Origin: Puniceicoccaceae bacterium
GTDB taxonomy: Bacteria; Verrucomicrobiota; Verrucomicrobiia; Opitutales; JAFGAQ01
Direction of reading: 5' to 3'
Assembly: GCA_028285755.1 (NCBI GenBank)
Contig: JANQOQ010000004.1
Coordinates: 134,720-198,719 of the forward strand
DNA: 64,000 bases
In this document: one piece after another, positions 5,869-60,857 of the stretch
Numbering within the stretch: the first letter of the stretch is position 1
How the letters are laid out: every line of letters begins with the position of its first letter
Program-made: the position numbers and the translations under genes
Notes under the pieces: model-generated
Seen by the model: the letters and a program-made list of their open reading frames with translations, nothing else
What the model was told of the DNA's origin: nothing
Database searches by the model: none

Positions 5869-6195
5869 TTAATCTACCTTGCAGTATATTTGATAGAGCA
5901 AACCCAGGATACTGCGAACATCATCCCGGGTGACTCTATAAAAAACTTGCTGATGATGCTTCCGGGTGCCCACCATACCCTCTGCACGCAATTTGGCCAG
6001 ATGTTGGGAGAGCGCAGACTGGCTTAAATCCAATTTTGACTGCAGCTCAGAAACCGACAACTCCTCTTCCATCAATAAATGACACAAAATCATGAGGCGC
6101 TGAGGATTACTGAGCGCATTTAGAGTAGCCGCCGCATTGCTGGCCTTATCCAGCATTTCATCGAGATTCAATTCAGAGGGAGATTCTACGGACAT
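5869..6195 (-). CDS. ArsR/SmtB-family winged-helix repressor, two-Cys SqrR/BigR-like (candidate persulfide sensor)
   Basis: 108 aa with HTH ELSVSELQSKLDLSQSALSQHLAKLRAEGMV. The only two cysteines are Cys38 (PQRLMILCHLL) and Cys105 (LLYQIYCKVD). There is no ELCVCDL-type metal site. Confidence 0.85.
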   Translation of the reverse strand: MSVESPSELNLDEMLDKASNAAATLNALSNPQRLMILCHLLMEEELSVSELQSKLDLSQSALSQHLAKLRAEGMVGTRKHHQQVFYRVTRDDVRSILGLLYQIYCKVD

Positions 6196-6211
6196 GATTT
6201 AAAGCTTTAAC

Positions 6212-6232
6212 TATATTAGAACTTTCTAAAAT
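6212..6232. promoter_or_regulatory. Candidate operator, copy 1 (dyad TTAGAA-ct-TTCTAA within TATATTAGAACTTTCTAAAAT)
   Basis: 6-2-6 inverted repeat at 6216-6229, 16 nt upstream of the ArsR-type gene start and about 100 nt upstream of the AlsD-like gene. It overlaps AT-rich -10-like hexamers (TAAAAT, TAATAT). 17/21 positions are identical to the site at 7168-7188. Confidence 0.45.
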
Positions 6233-6331
6233 AATATGCTTATGTCAATCCGTAATTAATTAAGTCGAATTTTTGGGTAACAGTCTTTAGAAAAAGAGCT
6301 ATTACTTCCAAATACCACTATTCTATCACTT

Positions 6332-7117
6332 ATGAAAAAATATTTCGTACACATTTGGGTCACAGTACTGACCTGCATCTATCTTCCTGCCGCTACAGTC
6401 ACCCAGTATTCAAGCTATGTGGGACTTCTTGAAAGACTTTTTGATGGTTTTGTGAGTATTGAGGATGCTATGAACTATGGAGATCATGGTATCGGAACCA
6501 CTCACGCATTAGACGGTGAAGTCATCATCATGGATGGAGAGATATACCGGATAAATTACGAGGGAGCAGTAGAGCGGATCAATCCCAGTGAGCTTACCCC
6601 ATACGTCACCCTTGCATTTACTCCCGAATCCGAGGCGATACCCTATAATCTACCTGCGGGCATAGCCTATGATCAGCTCGCAAATACCCTCCATAAACTG
6701 GATTCCATCGATCGCTTTGCGGAGAATCATGCGTATGCGGTGCGTATTGAGGGGAATTTCAAGTATTTAAAAGCACGTAGTGTTCCCAAGCAAACCAAGC
6801 CCTACCCTTCTCTGATCGAAATCGTGGAAAATCAATCTGTTTTTGAATTTCAGAATGAGAATTTTACCGTCATTGGCTTTTGGAACCCGGAATACGCTGC
6901 TGCCTTTAATCCGCCTAAATGGCATATCCATGGCATTAATCAAACGAGGGACGGCGGAGGACACATTCTTGATTTTATAACCGGGGATGACCTGAAGCTC
7001 TACCTTTGGAAAATGACCTCGCTTCAAATTCACCAGCCGGACACTTTAGAGTTTGAAAGCGCCGACCTAATGAAAGACCGTAGTGCAGACGTTCACCGCG
7101 TGAATAGGGATCAGTAA
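6332..7117 (+). CDS. Alpha-acetolactate decarboxylase family protein with N-terminal hydrophobic (signal/anchor-like) segment
   Basis: 261 aa. ..TQYSSYVGLLERLFDGFVSIEDAMNYGDHGIGTTHALDGEVIIMDGEIYRI.. and ..WHIHGINQTRDGGGHILDF.. match AlsD/BudA N-terminal and His-ligand blocks. The first 22 aa, MKKYFVHIWVTVLTCIYLPAAT, are hydrophobic. Confidence 0.8.
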   Translation: MKKYFVHIWVTVLTCIYLPAATVTQYSSYVGLLERLFDGFVSIEDAMNYGDHGIGTTHALDGEVIIMDGEIYRINYEGAVERINPSELTPYVTLAFTPESEAIPYNLPAGIAYDQLANTLHKLDSIDRFAENHAYAVRIEGNFKYLKARSVPKQTKPYPSLIEIVENQSVFEFQNENFTVIGFWNPEYAAAFNPPKWHIHGINQTRDGGGHILDFITGDDLKLYLWKMTSLQIHQPDTLEFESADLMKDRSADVHRVNRDQ

Positions 7118-7167
7118 ACGCTCCGCCTTTATATCTATAATTTATTAAGGATATTGGTTGACATCAT

Positions 7168-7188
7168 TATATTAGTATTTACTAAATT
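7168..7188. promoter_or_regulatory. Candidate operator, copy 2 (dyad TTAGTA-tt-TACTAA within TATATTAGTATTTACTAAATT), adjacent to a TTGACA -35-like hexamer
   Basis: 6-2-6 inverted repeat at 7172-7185. TTGACA lies at 7158-7163, 4 nt upstream of the 21-mer. The site ends 30 nt before the ATG of the 822-aa ORF. It is the same motif as 6212-6232, with a compensatory A/T to T/A swap that keeps the dyad. Confidence 0.45.
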
Positions 7189-7218
7189 AGATAAAACTAA
7201 TTTTTAAATCCAATTACC

Positions 7219-9687
7219 ATGATACAACCCAATTCAAAAGACTCTGAACATCGACTTGTGATCATTGGCGGTGTCGCCGGTGGGGCTTCTGCCGCCGCGC
7301 GTGCCCGCAGGCTTAATGAGCATGCCAAAATCACCCTTATTGAAAGAGGCCCGGATGTATCGTTCGCAAACTGCGGGTTGCCCTATTACATCGGGGGTGA
7401 AATCCAGGATCGTTCCCGGCTGGCCGTTCAAACACCGCAGAGTTTAATGAGTATGCTCAATATCGAGGTGCTCAATCTGACTGAAGCTACCGAGATTAAC
7501 CGGGAACATAAGCAGGTAAAAGTTCGTTATCTCGAAAGCAAGGATGAGGACACCCTGGAATATGACACTCTGATACTCGCTCCCGGTGCTGCCCCTCTGC
7601 GCCCTCCGCTTCCGGGAGTCGACCATAAGTTAGTATATACCCTGCGCAATCTACAGGATATGGACAGACTTAAGGAGAAAATAGAAACCGTTGACTCCAT
7701 TGTTATTGCTGGTGCGGGTTTCATTGGGCTCGAAGTAGCCGAACAGCTGGCGAATTTGGGCAAACAAGTAAGTGTGGTAGAGCTTCAGTCTCAGATTTTA
7801 CCGCAAGTAGACCCGGAAATTGCACGTCCAGCAGAAGAACGACTAACCGAAGAAGGGGTGAAACTGGTTTTAGGCGATGGTATCTCCCGCTTTGAAGACA
7901 AAGAAGGCTCGATCATTACCGAGTTGGCCTCAGGCAAACAAATCGAGAGTGGCATGGTTTTGCTTTCCATCGGCGTAAGGCCTGAGTCACAGCTTGCTAA
8001 AGAAGCAGGCCTGGAAATCGGTCCTCGGGGGCACATTGTAGTAGATGCCTATCAACAAACGTCGGACCCCGCTATCTATGCTGCGGGAGACGCTGTGCAA
8101 ACAATCGATGCCATTACCGGGCAGCCAACGGCGGTTCCGCTCGGTGGCCCCGCCAATCGCCAGGGTCGCACTGCAGCTGACCATATCTTTATGGGAGATC
8201 AGGCATTGCCCTACCCGGGCTCTTTGGGTACGGCAATCGTACGTGTATTTGATACGGTGATCGGGATTACCGGTTTTAGCGAAAAACGGCTCAAAGCGGC
8301 CAAGATGGATTACAAGACCACAACGGTCACAGCAACCGACCATGCCGGTTATTACCCCGGAGCCATGCAGATGACTCTCAAAATTGCCTGGAACCCGAAT
8401 GATGGGAAATTGCTTGGAGCACAGGCAGTCGGGGTGAACGGCATCGATAAACGCATCGATGTAATCGCAACTGCATTGCGTGCGGGAATGACGATTCAGG
8501 ACCTTTGCCATCTGGAGCTCGCCTATGCACCCCCATTCGGTGCTGCCAAGGATATCGTAAACATTGCCGGGTTTTCCGCCATGAATCTGGAAGACGAGCT
8601 CTATGACGCCGTCTATGAGCTACCGGATGCTGAAGCTGCTCAAATCGTGGATGTCCGCCCCCCGGAGTTGGCAACTATGAAACCCATCGAAGGCTCACGC
8701 AATATACCTTTTGCGAAACTCAGAGACCGTCTGAACGAGCTCGACCGCGAAAAGCCGGTTGTAACCGTATGTGCCCTGGGCAAAACCAGCTATTTCGCAT
8801 CTCGTGTACTCAATCAGGAAGGATTTAAAGCCCAGAGTCTTGTGGGTGGCATGACAGTGATGCCCACGAAGGAAACCAAAAATGACCCAACACCTATGCA
8901 AACCAACGATAAACCCAAAATAGAAAATCAGCCAAGTTCCATTTCCGCAGATAGTATCGTAAAACTGGATGCGACCGGACTCGCCTGCCCCGGACCCATC
9001 ATGCGCGTAAAGCAAAGCGTAGACCAGCTCGAAGCCGGACAGGTGCTCGAAGTGAGTGCAACGGACTCGGGCTTTATGAAGGATCTTCCAGCCTATGCGA
9101 AAAACGCAGGGCTCGAGTTGCTCGACATCTCTCGTGAAGCAGGAGTTATCACCGGTAAAGTTCGGAAGCTGGCTACTGAAAGCGTACCTGCTACCTCTGA
9201 CGAAGCATCTGCAAATAATGGAACAACCCTGGTCGTCTTCTCACAGGATATGGATAAGGCGCTCGCCTCTCTCGTGATTGCAAACGGTGCATTAGCGATG
9301 GGTAAAGAGGTCACCATGTTCTTCACCTTCTGGGGCCTGAATGTGCTGCGCAAGGAATCTGGAGCAACTCCAAAGGGCAAAAGCTTCATGGATCATATGT
9401 TTGGCTGGATGATGCCCAAGGGCATGGGTAAACTACCGCTCTCCAATATGCATATGGGCGGCATGGGCACGAAGATGATGAAGTGGCGCATGGCATCCAA
9501 GAATCTGCCGAATGTGCATGGCCTTATGCAATCTGCACGCGAACAGGGCGCACGTATGGTTGCGTGTTCGATGTCTATGGAAGCCATGGGCATCCGTCAG
9601 GAAGAACTGCTGGACGATATAGAAGTCGGAGGTGTGGCAGACTTTCTCGACGCTACCAACCACTCAAAGGCCAATCTGTTTGTCTAA
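7219..9687 (+). CDS. Four-domain fusion: CoA-disulfide-reductase-type FAD/NAD(P) oxidoreductase + rhodanese + TusA/SirA + DsrE/DsrF-like domain
   Basis: 822 aa. aa 1-450: LVIIGGVAGGASAAARA (FAD), SFANC52GLPYYIGG (CoADR/Nox redox Cys), IAGAGFIGLEVAE (NAD). aa ~470-548: rhodanese with VTVC518ALGKTS. aa ~578-650: LDATGLAC590PGPIMRVK (TusA CPxP). aa ~668-822: DsrE-like with MVAC783SMSMEAMG. Confidence 0.85.
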   Translation: MIQPNSKDSEHRLVIIGGVAGGASAAARARRLNEHAKITLIERGPDVSFANCGLPYYIGGEIQDRSRLAVQTPQSLMSMLNIEVLNLTEATEINREHKQVKVRYLESKDEDTLEYDTLILAPGAAPLRPPLPGVDHKLVYTLRNLQDMDRLKEKIETVDSIVIAGAGFIGLEVAEQLANLGKQVSVVELQSQILPQVDPEIARPAEERLTEEGVKLVLGDGISRFEDKEGSIITELASGKQIESGMVLLSIGVRPESQLAKEAGLEIGPRGHIVVDAYQQTSDPAIYAAGDAVQTIDAITGQPTAVPLGGPANRQGRTAADHIFMGDQALPYPGSLGTAIVRVFDTVIGITGFSEKRLKAAKMDYKTTTVTATDHAGYYPGAMQMTLKIAWNPNDGKLLGAQAVGVNGIDKRIDVIATALRAGMTIQDLCHLELAYAPPFGAAKDIVNIAGFSAMNLEDELYDAVYELPDAEAAQIVDVRPPELATMKPIEGSRNIPFAKLRDRLNELDREKPVVTVCALGKTSYFASRVLNQEGFKAQSLVGGMTVMPTKETKNDPTPMQTNDKPKIENQPSSISADSIVKLDATGLACPGPIMRVKQSVDQLEAGQVLEVSATDSGFMKDLPAYAKNAGLELLDISREAGVITGKVRKLATESVPATSDEASANNGTTLVVFSQDMDKALASLVIANGALAMGKEVTMFFTFWGLNVLRKESGATPKGKSFMDHMFGWMMPKGMGKLPLSNMHMGGMGTKMMKWRMASKNLPNVHGLMQSAREQGARMVACSMSMEAMGIRQEELLDDIEVGGVADFLDATNHSKANLFV

Positions 9688-59258: not shown

Positions 59259-60857
59259 ATGAAGCATTTTTTGATTTGGGCAGTTGGAGCTTTTCTGACT
59301 ACGTCTTCTCTATTCGGGAATAAGGCACAACCGAATTTTCTATTCATCGCGGTAGACGATCTGAATGTTTACAACACAGTACTCGGGGATCACCCATCCA
59401 GTTTCCTCACTAAAATTTATCCGGACGACTCTCTCCGCAAAGACGTCGTAAAAAGACTCACTCCGAATATCCAACGCTTATCGGACCTGGGGCTTACCTT
59501 TAATAACGCATTCTGCCCCTACCCGCTCTGTGGCCCATCCCGCACTGCGTTGCTGACCGGGGTTCCGCCCCATGTTTCCGGCTACTACGAGCACGACCGG
59601 CATTTTCGCGCGTATCAGACGCTGACCAAAACGATTACCTTACCCGAGTTCCTCAAAAAGAACGGATACTACACAGCCGGTATTGGCAAAGTATTTCATA
59701 AGGGGCGATCTTATCTGGATCGAGGATACTTCTCGGATTGGCCTGACCAGCTATACTCCTGGTCGGATTGGGTTGAAGCGAATTCAGGCACCGGCCGCAC
59801 TGCCGGCTCAAGCGTTCCATTCGAAGAGAAGCGCTCGAAATACTGGGATCAGCAAGGACGATCCCCAACCAACTTTACAAGATTTGGAGTCACTAATCTA
59901 CCTCAGGAAGAGAGTAATGACTACGAGAACGCACGATTCATAGCTGATTTAATGGTAAATAGGAAAGCCACTATCGTGGATATACAGCGGGAAAAGCGAA
60001 CTCTAAAGCTGCCCGAAAATACTCCCTATTTCCTGGCATGCGGCCTGTTTGCTCCCCATTTGCCATTTGTAGCTCAGCAGGAATATTTTGACCTTTTTCC
60101 CCAAGATGAAATGGCAATCGGGGATGAACTCCTGAATTGGATCCAGGAAGACCTCAAAGACCTTTCGCAAACCGCTCAGAACATGACAAGTAACACCCAC
60201 TTCAGTCGGCTCCTCAAATTTGGAAAAACCCTGGATGGTACCGGCGGTGATATCAACGCCTGGAAAGCCTATTTTCAAGCCTACCTGGCGACCATTGCCT
60301 ACAGTGATCACAATATCGGGATGCTCGTGGACGCCATCGAAGAGAATCCACAGCGTGAGAATACGATTGTATTTCTCTGGAGCGACCACGGATATCACCT
60401 GGGGGATAAAAACCGCTCTGGCAAAACCACACTGTGGGAAGCTGCTAATCACAGCAATCTGATCATTTATCACCCCGCATTAGAAGGGGCTAATCGGGGA
60501 TTAAGGACAGATGCTACCGTGAGCCTGCAGGACATCTACCCAACCATTGTAGCGCTTGCGGGATTAGAGCGCCCGGCACATATCTACGGTTTTAATCTTA
60601 AGCCCATTCTTAAAGATCCAGATATCGATTGGCCTCATGCGGTGCTCAATACCAATGGAGAAGGCAACCACTCCCTGAGAACACAGAACTATCGATACAT
60701 CCGCTTTAAGAACGGAGATCAGGAGCTCTACGCTCTTAAAAAGGACCCGCTCGAATATGACAACCTGGCAAACCTAGAAAAATACCAGGATATGCTCGAG
60801 CAGTTCAGCAGGCAATTGGATCAGCGGCTGGCGATGGGTCCTCGCGATTTCAAATGA
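59259..60857 (+). CDS. Sulfatase (Cys-type formylglycine sulfatase)
   Basis: 532 aa with a signal peptide. ..PNFLFIAVDDLN.., ..PLCGPSRTALLTG.. (CxPxR) and ..FLWSDHGYHLG... Confidence 0.85.
   Translation: MKHFLIWAVGAFLTTSSLFGNKAQPNFLFIAVDDLNVYNTVLGDHPSSFLTKIYPDDSLRKDVVKRLTPNIQRLSDLGLTFNNAFCPYPLCGPSRTALLTGVPPHVSGYYEHDRHFRAYQTLTKTITLPEFLKKNGYYTAGIGKVFHKGRSYLDRGYFSDWPDQLYSWSDWVEANSGTGRTAGSSVPFEEKRSKYWDQQGRSPTNFTRFGVTNLPQEESNDYENARFIADLMVNRKATIVDIQREKRTLKLPENTPYFLACGLFAPHLPFVAQQEYFDLFPQDEMAIGDELLNWIQEDLKDLSQTAQNMTSNTHFSRLLKFGKTLDGTGGDINAWKAYFQAYLATIAYSDHNIGMLVDAIEENPQRENTIVFLWSDHGYHLGDKNRSGKTTLWEAANHSNLIIYHPALEGANRGLRTDATVSLQDIYPTIVALAGLERPAHIYGFNLKPILKDPDIDWPHAVLNTNGEGNHSLRTQNYRYIRFKNGDQELYALKKDPLEYDNLANLEKYQDMLEQFSRQLDQRLAMGPRDFK

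Follow-up and report, generated by a model that had tools for sequence, protein, structure and literature searches.

Candidate operators of an HlyU/NolR-like ArsR-family regulator before its own gene and a sulfur-transfer fusion gene in a Puniceicoccaceae bacterium

The window analysed here is a 64,000-nucleotide (nt) stretch of forward-strand DNA from a Puniceicoccaceae bacterium (assembly GCA_028285755.1, contig JANQOQ010000004.1, positions 134,720 to 198,719), and the element in question is a dyad-symmetric 21-mer that occurs in two of its intergenic regions. One copy precedes a gene for an ArsR-family regulator on the minus strand, and the other precedes an open reading frame (ORF) of 822 amino acids (aa) on the plus strand that encodes a predicted sulfur-transfer fusion protein. 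This 21-mer very probably serves as the binding site for the adjacent ArsR-family regulator. Together with a third, overlapping dyad, the two copies are likely to be operators at which a homodimer of this regulator would repress transcription until relieved by persulfide. The probable local regulon comprises the regulator gene, the fusion gene, and possibly the gene lying between the two operator regions, which encodes a protein of the alpha-acetolactate decarboxylase family (AlsD-like).

The kind of operator is already known: these would be canonical dyad operators of a two-cysteine ArsR regulator that carries the HlyU/NolR recognition helix. The original prediction proposed an operator for a dimeric winged-helix regulator of ArsR type, and this proposal is supported by a 138-fold enrichment of the core motif beside homologous regulators, by the match to NolR and HlyU operators, and by the shared recognition helix. 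It is not supported by the compensatory change between the two copies, to which that prediction had also appealed.

Candidate operator sites and their conservation

The two copies lie where they had been placed, at 6212-6232 (O1) and 7168-7188 (O2a), and their distances to the neighbouring genes are borne out by the sequence. O1 is found in the divergent intergenic region between the arsR and AlsD-like genes, where 16 nt separate it from the ATG of arsR and 99 nt from the AlsD-like ORF. O2a begins 4 nt after a TTGACA hexamer (7158-7163) and ends 30 nt before the 822-aa ORF (7219). The copies are identical at 17 of 21 positions, differing at positions 9, 11, 14, and 20, and each contains the 6-2-6 dyad that had been described. 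The accompanying statement that the window holds no third copy is wrong, as a third core (TTAG-ATAAAA-CTAA) is present at 7187-7200. This third site (O2b) overlaps O2a at an offset of 15 base pairs (bp) through the junction CTAAATTAG and stops 18 nt short of the ATG at 7219. The first observation on this DNA therefore holds for the sites, their identity, and their dyads, but it overlooked one site and drew on a compensatory change that lies within chance.

Although the intergenic regions are AT-rich (35-41% GC), the sites are rare in the window. A degenerate 21-mer covering both copies has only two matches with up to three mismatches, as compared to a mean of 0.02 matches in shuffled sequence (0 of 100 shuffles reached two). 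The bare core TTAG-N6-CTAA occurs four times where 0.66 are expected, a count reached by 1 of 100 shuffles. The fourth exact core (ATTAGAAGGGGCTAAT, 60480-60493) lies inside a 532-aa ORF (59259-60857), has GC-rich flanks and a GC-rich spacer, and scores 4.9 bits; because shuffles predict 0.66 bare cores per window, it is probably due to chance. A second, degenerate site beside O1, with three of the eight core positions mismatched, is not claimed.

For comparison, 80 loci were taken from species-representative genomes with a homologue of the regulator (44-59% identity). The genomes belong to Alpha- and Gammaproteobacteria and, in two cases, to Verrucomicrobiota; these two, one from Opitutales and one from Puniceicoccaceae, rank among the closest. 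In the DNA within 250 bp upstream of the regulator genes, 21.7 kilobases (kb) in total, the exact core TTAG-N6-CTAA occurs 39 times, versus 7 times in the other 575 kb of these loci, a 138-fold ratio of densities. As a background check, an unrelated set of 84 loci (557 kb) contains 8 exact cores. An exact site is located upstream of the regulator gene in 33 of the 80 loci, and a site with at most one mismatch in 43. The flanks at the homologous sites are the same as those in the window, ATATATTAG-N6-CTAAATTAG (i.e., ATATATTAG...CTAAAT).

A position matrix was built solely from 44 distinct foreign sites, with the window sites set aside. Because the sites were collected by the G and C of TTAG/CTAA, constancy at these two positions is not itself evidence. 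Applied to the window, the matrix gives 28.3 bits (7167-7190), 27.1 bits (6211-6234), and 26.7 bits (7182-7205), and the next best position reaches 8.5 bits. Given the enrichment and the matrix scores, the motif is specific rather than a generic AT-rich feature, and it travels with the regulator clade. The original prediction had allowed that a motif common throughout AT-rich DNA would refute it; a next best score of 8.5 bits versus 27-28 bits speaks against such a motif. Its companion expectation, conservation upstream of orthologues, is borne out before the regulator homologues but not before orthologues of the 822-aa gene, where the motif is absent.

Close pairs of sites recur in the comparative set, and 16 of the 23 pairs, each from a different locus, have an offset of exactly 15 bp. 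Judged from these loci, the 15-bp-offset double site represented by O2a and O2b is a feature of the family. In the Puniceicoccaceae locus (L037, positions 700-760), three consecutive overlapping dyads (TTTAGatttatCTAATTTAGaagttaCTTATATTAGtattttCTAATTTA) are positioned between the regulator gene and a divergent gene. Neighbours of the homologous regulators include MBL-fold hydrolases, YeeE-type sulfur transport proteins, TauE sulfite exporters, and DUF6691 proteins. This is the gene content of bigR-type sulfide-detoxification operons (PMC5823870).

The compensatory change exists as described: positions 9 and 14 of the 21-mer are mirror partners, and between the copies they change from A to T and from T to A, respectively. 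The change is nevertheless compatible with chance. In simulations with four random substitutions, weighted by the local base composition, 9.6% of runs produced a compensated symmetric double change. Of the 44 homologous sites, 11 have complementary bases at this pair, versus 13.6 expected if the two positions were independent, and neither this pair nor the other spacer pairs covary. In O2b the pair is occupied by A and A, and in the NolR consensus it falls within the unspecified N9. On account of the chance frequency, the lack of covariation, the A/A pair in O2b, and the position within N9, compensatory covariation was rejected as evidence after simulation and comparison with the homologous sites. 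The assertion that chance AT-rich similarity would not produce a compensated dyad is contradicted by the roughly 10% chance frequency, the lack of covariation, and a third copy without the change. The dyad that matters is TTAG/CTAA with its A/T flanks; in the sites compared, the inner six bases look unconstrained beyond being AT-rich.

Table 1. Positions of the candidate operators, promoter-like hexamers, and genes in the window, and of the palindrome in loci of fusion-gene orthologues
Feature	Position	Strand	Details
Candidate operator O1, single dyad TATATTAGAACTTTCTAAAAT	6212-6232		Core TTAG 6216-6219, CTAA 6226-6229; 27.1 bits
Candidate operator O2a TATATTAGTATTTACTAAATT	7168-7188		Core TTAG 7172-7175, CTAA 7182-7185; 28.3 bits, best in window
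Candidate operator O2b	7182-7205		Core TTAG 7187-7190, ATAAAA, CTAA 7197-7200; 26.7 bits
TTGACA, -35-like, for 822-aa gene	7158-7163	+	TAAATT at 7183-7188 after a 19-nt spacer
TTGACA, arsR sense strand	6243-6248	-	Within 17-nt element TTGACAT-N4-ATATTA; putative promoter element
ArsR/SmtB-family regulator gene	5869-6195	-	108 aa; Pfam HTH_5, E=4.8e-13
822-aa fusion gene, probable target	7219-9687	+	Pfam Pyr_redox_2, Rhodanese, TusA, DrsE_2
AlsD-like gene (alpha-acetolactate decarboxylase family), between operator regions	6332-7117	+	Pfam PF03306, E=6.2e-59
Palindrome ATCGTATAT..ATATACGAT	L081: 3591-3628; L082: 3578-3615; L083: 3598-3630; L084: 3622-3650

The regulator, the fusion protein, and the promoter regions

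The regulator, whose start codon is the ATG at 6195 on the minus strand, belongs to the ArsR/SmtB winged-helix proteins (NF033788, 83.5 bits versus a cut-off of 55). Its best solved-structure relative is HlyU of Vibrio cholerae (4k2e, E=4.6e-26), followed by other HlyUs, NolR, BigR, YgaV, and SqrR. The recognition helix, LSQSALSQHL, is identical in HlyU and NolR. An alignment of 43 homologues shows no variation at the two cysteines C38 and C105, which correspond to the sensing pair of HlyU (its ILC and YC cysteines); the protein has the alpha-2 and C-terminal helix cysteines that characterize two-cysteine persulfide sensors. As its score against the BigR equivalog of NCBIfam (NF040642) is 92.3 bits, below the cut-off of 155, the regulator is not named BigR. 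By its sequence, it is an HlyU/NolR-like, two-cysteine ArsR-family protein with the cysteine pair of the HlyU/BigR/SqrR persulfide sensors.

The 822-aa protein is a fusion of a CoA-disulfide-reductase-like (CoADR-like) flavoprotein with rhodanese, TusA, and DsrE, an architecture widespread in Verrucomicrobiota. Its catalytic-type cysteines C52 (in SFANCG), C518, and C590 are invariant among 26 homologues. The fusion contains both components of a CoADR-rhodanese, a CoADR-like flavoprotein with an active-site cysteine and a rhodanese with a cysteine, and the corresponding activity is predicted. Because its score against TIGR03385 (436.5) falls under the cut-off of 578.8, the protein is described as CoADR-like rather than as a CoADR equivalog. 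A sub-threshold Rfam match to the Vibrio antisense RNA AS7 (7268-7400, minus strand; 47.4 bits, gathering score 90, E=1.8e-07) is located opposite the 5' portion of the CoADR-like coding sequence, in antisense orientation, and probably reflects conserved coding sequence, not an RNA gene.

In the proposed mechanism, the alpha-4 recognition helix (LSQSALSQHL) of each subunit of the reduced (dithiol) dimer would enter one of two successive major grooves, and the dimer would read TTAG and CTAA, the centres of which are 10 bp apart. One dimer bound to O1, at the promoter region of the regulator, would let the regulator control its own gene and possibly the divergent AlsD-like gene as well. Two dimers bound to O2a and O2b (7168-7205) would be offset by 15 bp, or about 1.4 helical turns, and would sit on roughly opposite faces of the DNA. 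Together they would cover a stretch that starts just after TTGACA, includes the -10-like TAAATT, and ends about 18 nt short of the ATG, and would thus exclude RNA polymerase. Sulfane sulfur (persulfide or polysulfide) would then bridge C38 and C105 and lower the affinity for DNA, and the gene for the CoADR-rhodanese-TusA-DsrE enzyme, which is predicted to handle persulfide sulfur, would be derepressed. From the sites and the proteins we infer that the regulator binds, that it represses rather than activates, that two dimers occupy the double site, which promoter elements are used, and what the inducer is. A persulfide-responsive repressor is the most likely mechanism because of the sulfur-gene neighbours, the invariant cysteine pair, and the persulfide response of HlyU.

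Promoter-like hexamers accompany some of the sites in the homologous regulator loci. At 12 of them, the sense strand of the regulator has TTGAC with its first base 11-12 nt ahead of TTAG, so that the TAAATT of the junction CTAAATTAG lies 17 nt after TTGACA, in the place of a -10 element. The 822-aa gene has the same layout of TTGACA and TAAATT, with a spacer two bases longer. The placement of the operators over the region from TTGACA to near the ATG argues for repression by occlusion, with promoter evidence at the level of consensus hexamers. Before arsR, the TTGACA (6248-6243) lies 19 nt from TTAG and lacks a convincing -10 element. A consensus promoter scan called 3 promoter-like sites, where 3.8 were expected, and used neither TTGACA. 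A promoter-like TTAACT-17-AATAAT (6207-6235), oriented for the AlsD-like gene, brackets O1.

The two regulatory regions share further sequence. An inverted repeat of 17 nt (6232-6248 and 7158-7174, 82% complementary) places TTGACAT-N4-ATATTA on the sense strands of both arsR and the 822-aa gene, and, read in the direction of each gene, TTTAAATC occurs before both ATGs. The operator core differs in position by 5 bp from one region to the other. A scan of the interval between the AlsD-like and 822-aa genes (7118-7218) detected no site resembling an intrinsic terminator, and read-through from an upstream promoter into the 822-aa gene may occur.

The AlsD-like protein just reaches the threshold of TIGR01252 (180.7 versus a cut-off of 180.65), and its hydrophobic N-terminus (MKKYFVHIWVTVLTCIYLPAA) suggests that it is exported. 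Homologues with 49-55% identity are found in Opitutales, other Verrucomicrobiota, and Bdellovibrionaceae metagenome-assembled genomes, and a Victivallales homologue is 37% identical. The homologous genes elsewhere occur in unrelated contexts (e.g., beside purL, a sulfatase, or DJ-1/PfpI). Given these contexts, and its presence in 0 of 164 regulator or fusion loci, the AlsD-like gene was rejected as a conserved member of the module; its membership in the regulon is uncertain.

A different regulator at orthologous targets, and alternative explanations

The four closest named orthologues of the 822-aa protein (57-63% identity) are encoded by Puniceicoccaceae 5H, Verrucomicrobiota JB022, Coraliomargarita akajimensis, and Cerasicoccus maritimus. 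At all four loci, an ArsR-family gene is positioned directly upstream on the same strand. The encoded ArsR protein is only 29% identical to the window regulator, has the helix LAQPTVSQH, and lacks C38. Its gene is preceded by a different palindrome, ATCGTATAT...ATATACGAT, immediately after CTTGACA (Table 1). To judge by these loci, the LAQPTVSQH ArsR and its palindrome seem to form a further regulator-operator pair for this target gene, apparently one not yet characterised. Among 84 fusion-gene loci, there was no TTAG-N6-CTAA at the fusion promoter, no regulator of the window type at comparable identity, and no AlsD-like gene. A metagenome scan with the single 822-aa protein yielded no match, and a scan with an alignment of this protein yielded 80 loci, none with the motif at the fusion-gene promoter. 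Because the orthologue loci have another ArsR subfamily and another palindrome, the operator follows the regulator, not the target, and the combination of regulator and target in the window is, on this sampling, unusual among the genomes compared.

A broader proposal is that the TTAG-N6-CTAA dyad, often as a 15-bp-offset pair, is a cross-phylum promoter-operator cassette of the LSQSALSQHL clade (including HlyU and NolR). The junction CTAAATTAG would supply the -10 element TAAATT, and the cassette would have been redeployed here onto the CoADR-rhodanese-TusA-DsrE gene. This proposal is tentative, and we give it slightly less than even weight. If true, it would provide a clear-cut natural example in which the target stays fixed and its regulator is displaced, with sister lineages using a different ArsR subfamily and a different palindrome.

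Several observations weigh against the assignment of the three dyads to the adjacent regulator as a persulfide-relieved repressor. Only 43 of the 80 homologous loci have an upstream site with at most one mismatch, and either the motif is not universal in the clade or, where a site is missing, the regulator gene occupies a later position in its operon. Matches to promoter hexamers are weak: the spacer at the 822-aa gene would be 19 nt, arsR has no good -10 element, and the scan called a promoter with neither TTGACA. Orthologues of the target gene use a different regulator. The closest solved relative, HlyU, activates hlyA by displacing H-NS (PMC10509353), and NolR shares the recognition helix yet has no cysteines and no known inducer (PMC8960804), so that identity of the helix does not fix the signal.

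The last two of these points underlie two alternatives. The regulator could bind the sites and, like HlyU in Vibrio, activate transcription or counteract silencing. This alternative is quite improbable, as the sites lie 16-30 nt from start codons, after or over -35- and -10-like elements, which is a promoter-occluding position that disfavours an HlyU-like role; moreover, the homologues reside in sulfur loci resembling the bigR operon, where repression is the described mode (PMC5823870). The regulator and operators could also be as proposed but with a signal other than persulfide, such as peroxide, another thiol oxidant, or a ligand as for NolR. Besides the example of NolR, this alternative draws on the score below the cut-off for the BigR equivalog and on an earlier proposal that HlyU senses oxidants (PMC4330345). 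It is unlikely in view of the invariance of both sensing cysteines, the reaction of the HlyU pair with persulfides and not with H2O2 (PMC10509353), and the identity of the target as a rhodanese/TusA/DsrE sulfur-transfer fusion.

Two further alternatives dispense with the regulator. The likeness of the 21-mers could stem from duplicated promoter DNA or from shared AT-rich elements resembling -10 boxes, rather than from selection for a transcription-factor site: TTGACAT-N4-ATATTA and TTTAAATC are also common to both regions, and TATATT and TAAATT resemble -10 boxes. Yet the same core and flanks precede homologous regulators in distant phyla, and common ancestry of intergenic DNA over such distances is implausible; moreover, the G and C of TTAG/CTAA are outside the -10 consensus. 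This explanation is very improbable. Chance similarity in AT-rich intergenic DNA, in whose favour stand the base composition of these regions and the shuffles of the bare core (4 versus 0.66 expected, with 1 of 100 shuffles at 4), is excluded by the matrix and the enrichment, as the three sites stand about 18 bits above all other positions in the window and the cross-genome enrichment is 138-fold. The related idea that the dyads act as RNA hairpins is opposed by the weakness of the predicted folds (-2.6 to -4.5 kcal/mol, z -1.0 to -2.2). An Rfam search of the intergenic regions matched no family, and an RNA-level function of the dyads was rejected on both grounds. Chance or hairpins together are hardly credible.

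The preferred reading, three operators of the adjacent ArsR homodimer, offers a confident and testable operator assignment for an uncharacterised regulator in what appears to be a poorly studied lineage, with Opitutales and Puniceicoccaceae genomes as its nearest relatives.

Relation to known operators and regulators

The window sites have the properties of NolR/HlyU-type operators: all three fit the consensus, and a regulator with the matching helix is encoded nearby. A crystal structure of Sinorhizobium NolR bound to DNA is available (4ON0), and the NolR consensus is (A/T)TTAG-N9-A(T/A) (Lee et al. 2014, as quoted in PMC8960804). The three sites read ATTAG-N9-AA, ATTAG-N9-AA, and ATTAG-N9-AT, and the recognition helix is identical. 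In contrast to the window regulator, NolR has no cysteines and no known inducer (PMC8960804), and it controls nodulation genes. The window sites also differ in being fully dyadic (TTAG-N6-CTAA), one of them as a double site.

The half-sites of Vibrio HlyU are ATATTAG and CTAATAT (PMC10325908), equal to the TATATTAG flank plus core in the window. The V. cholerae HlyU footprint reads ...AAATTAATTCAGACTAAATTAGTTCAAATT (PMC4330345, PMC10509353); in the register of the window it corresponds to ATTAA-TTCAGA-CTAAATTAG, one mismatch from the core and with the junction motif included. HlyU and the window regulator share the recognition helix and the cysteine pair, which in HlyU forms polysulfide bridges that abolish DNA binding (PMC10509353). 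A persulfide-specific polysulfide bridge that releases DNA has been shown for both HlyU and SqrR (PMC10509353, bioRxiv 10.1101/2020.03.22.001966). However, HlyU sites are located far upstream and mediate activation by counter-silencing of H-NS, whereas the window sites overlap putative core promoters beside sulfur-transfer genes. The HlyU repeats of V. parahaemolyticus (exsBA) are 14 nt apart, rather than 6 as in the window.

The comparison of 80 genomes links the operators of NolR and HlyU, which the literature treats as separate cases. It supports a single dyad common to the whole clade, together with a recurrent double site at a 15-bp offset, and could guide the prediction of HlyU-like regulons.

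Barbosa and Benedetti (2007) reportedly described an AT-rich palindromic "BigR box" that overlaps the -10 region. BigR of Xylella and Agrobacterium is likewise a two-cysteine ArsR-family repressor of sulfur-detoxification genes that responds to sulfide or persulfide (PMC5823870). Many homologues of the window regulator adjoin MBL-fold, YeeE, and TauE genes, as in the bigR operon. The two differ in the helix (IGQPTLSQQL in Xylella BigR versus LSQSALSQHL) and in the target, which in the window is the CoADR-rhodanese-TusA-DsrE fusion rather than Blh.

CstR of Firmicutes belongs to the CsoR family and is not a winged-helix protein, and its operators are unrelated to the window sites. The logic of the cst operons is nonetheless the same, with a persulfide-sensing repressor over a CoADR-rhodanese-type enzyme and TusA/DsrE carriers (in part bioRxiv 10.1101/2021.07.25.453692).

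SqrR and Escherichia coli YgaV share with the window system the superfamily, the sensing chemistry of a cysteine pair, and a 16-bp dyad geometry (PMC9774250; bioRxiv 10.64898/2026.05.15.721447). Their repressor sites lie over promoter elements, as is proposed for the window sites (bioRxiv 10.64898/2026.05.15.721447; PMC9774250). The sqr box of Rhodobacter capsulatus is ATTC-N8-GAAT (bioRxiv 10.64898/2026.05.15.721447), and the window sites do not match it, as they read ATTA-N8-TAAA or TAAT. Position +/-5 is C/G in SqrR but A/T in the window, where an extra G/C is specified at +/-4. The current understanding of ArsR-family persulfide sensors is unchanged by these findings.

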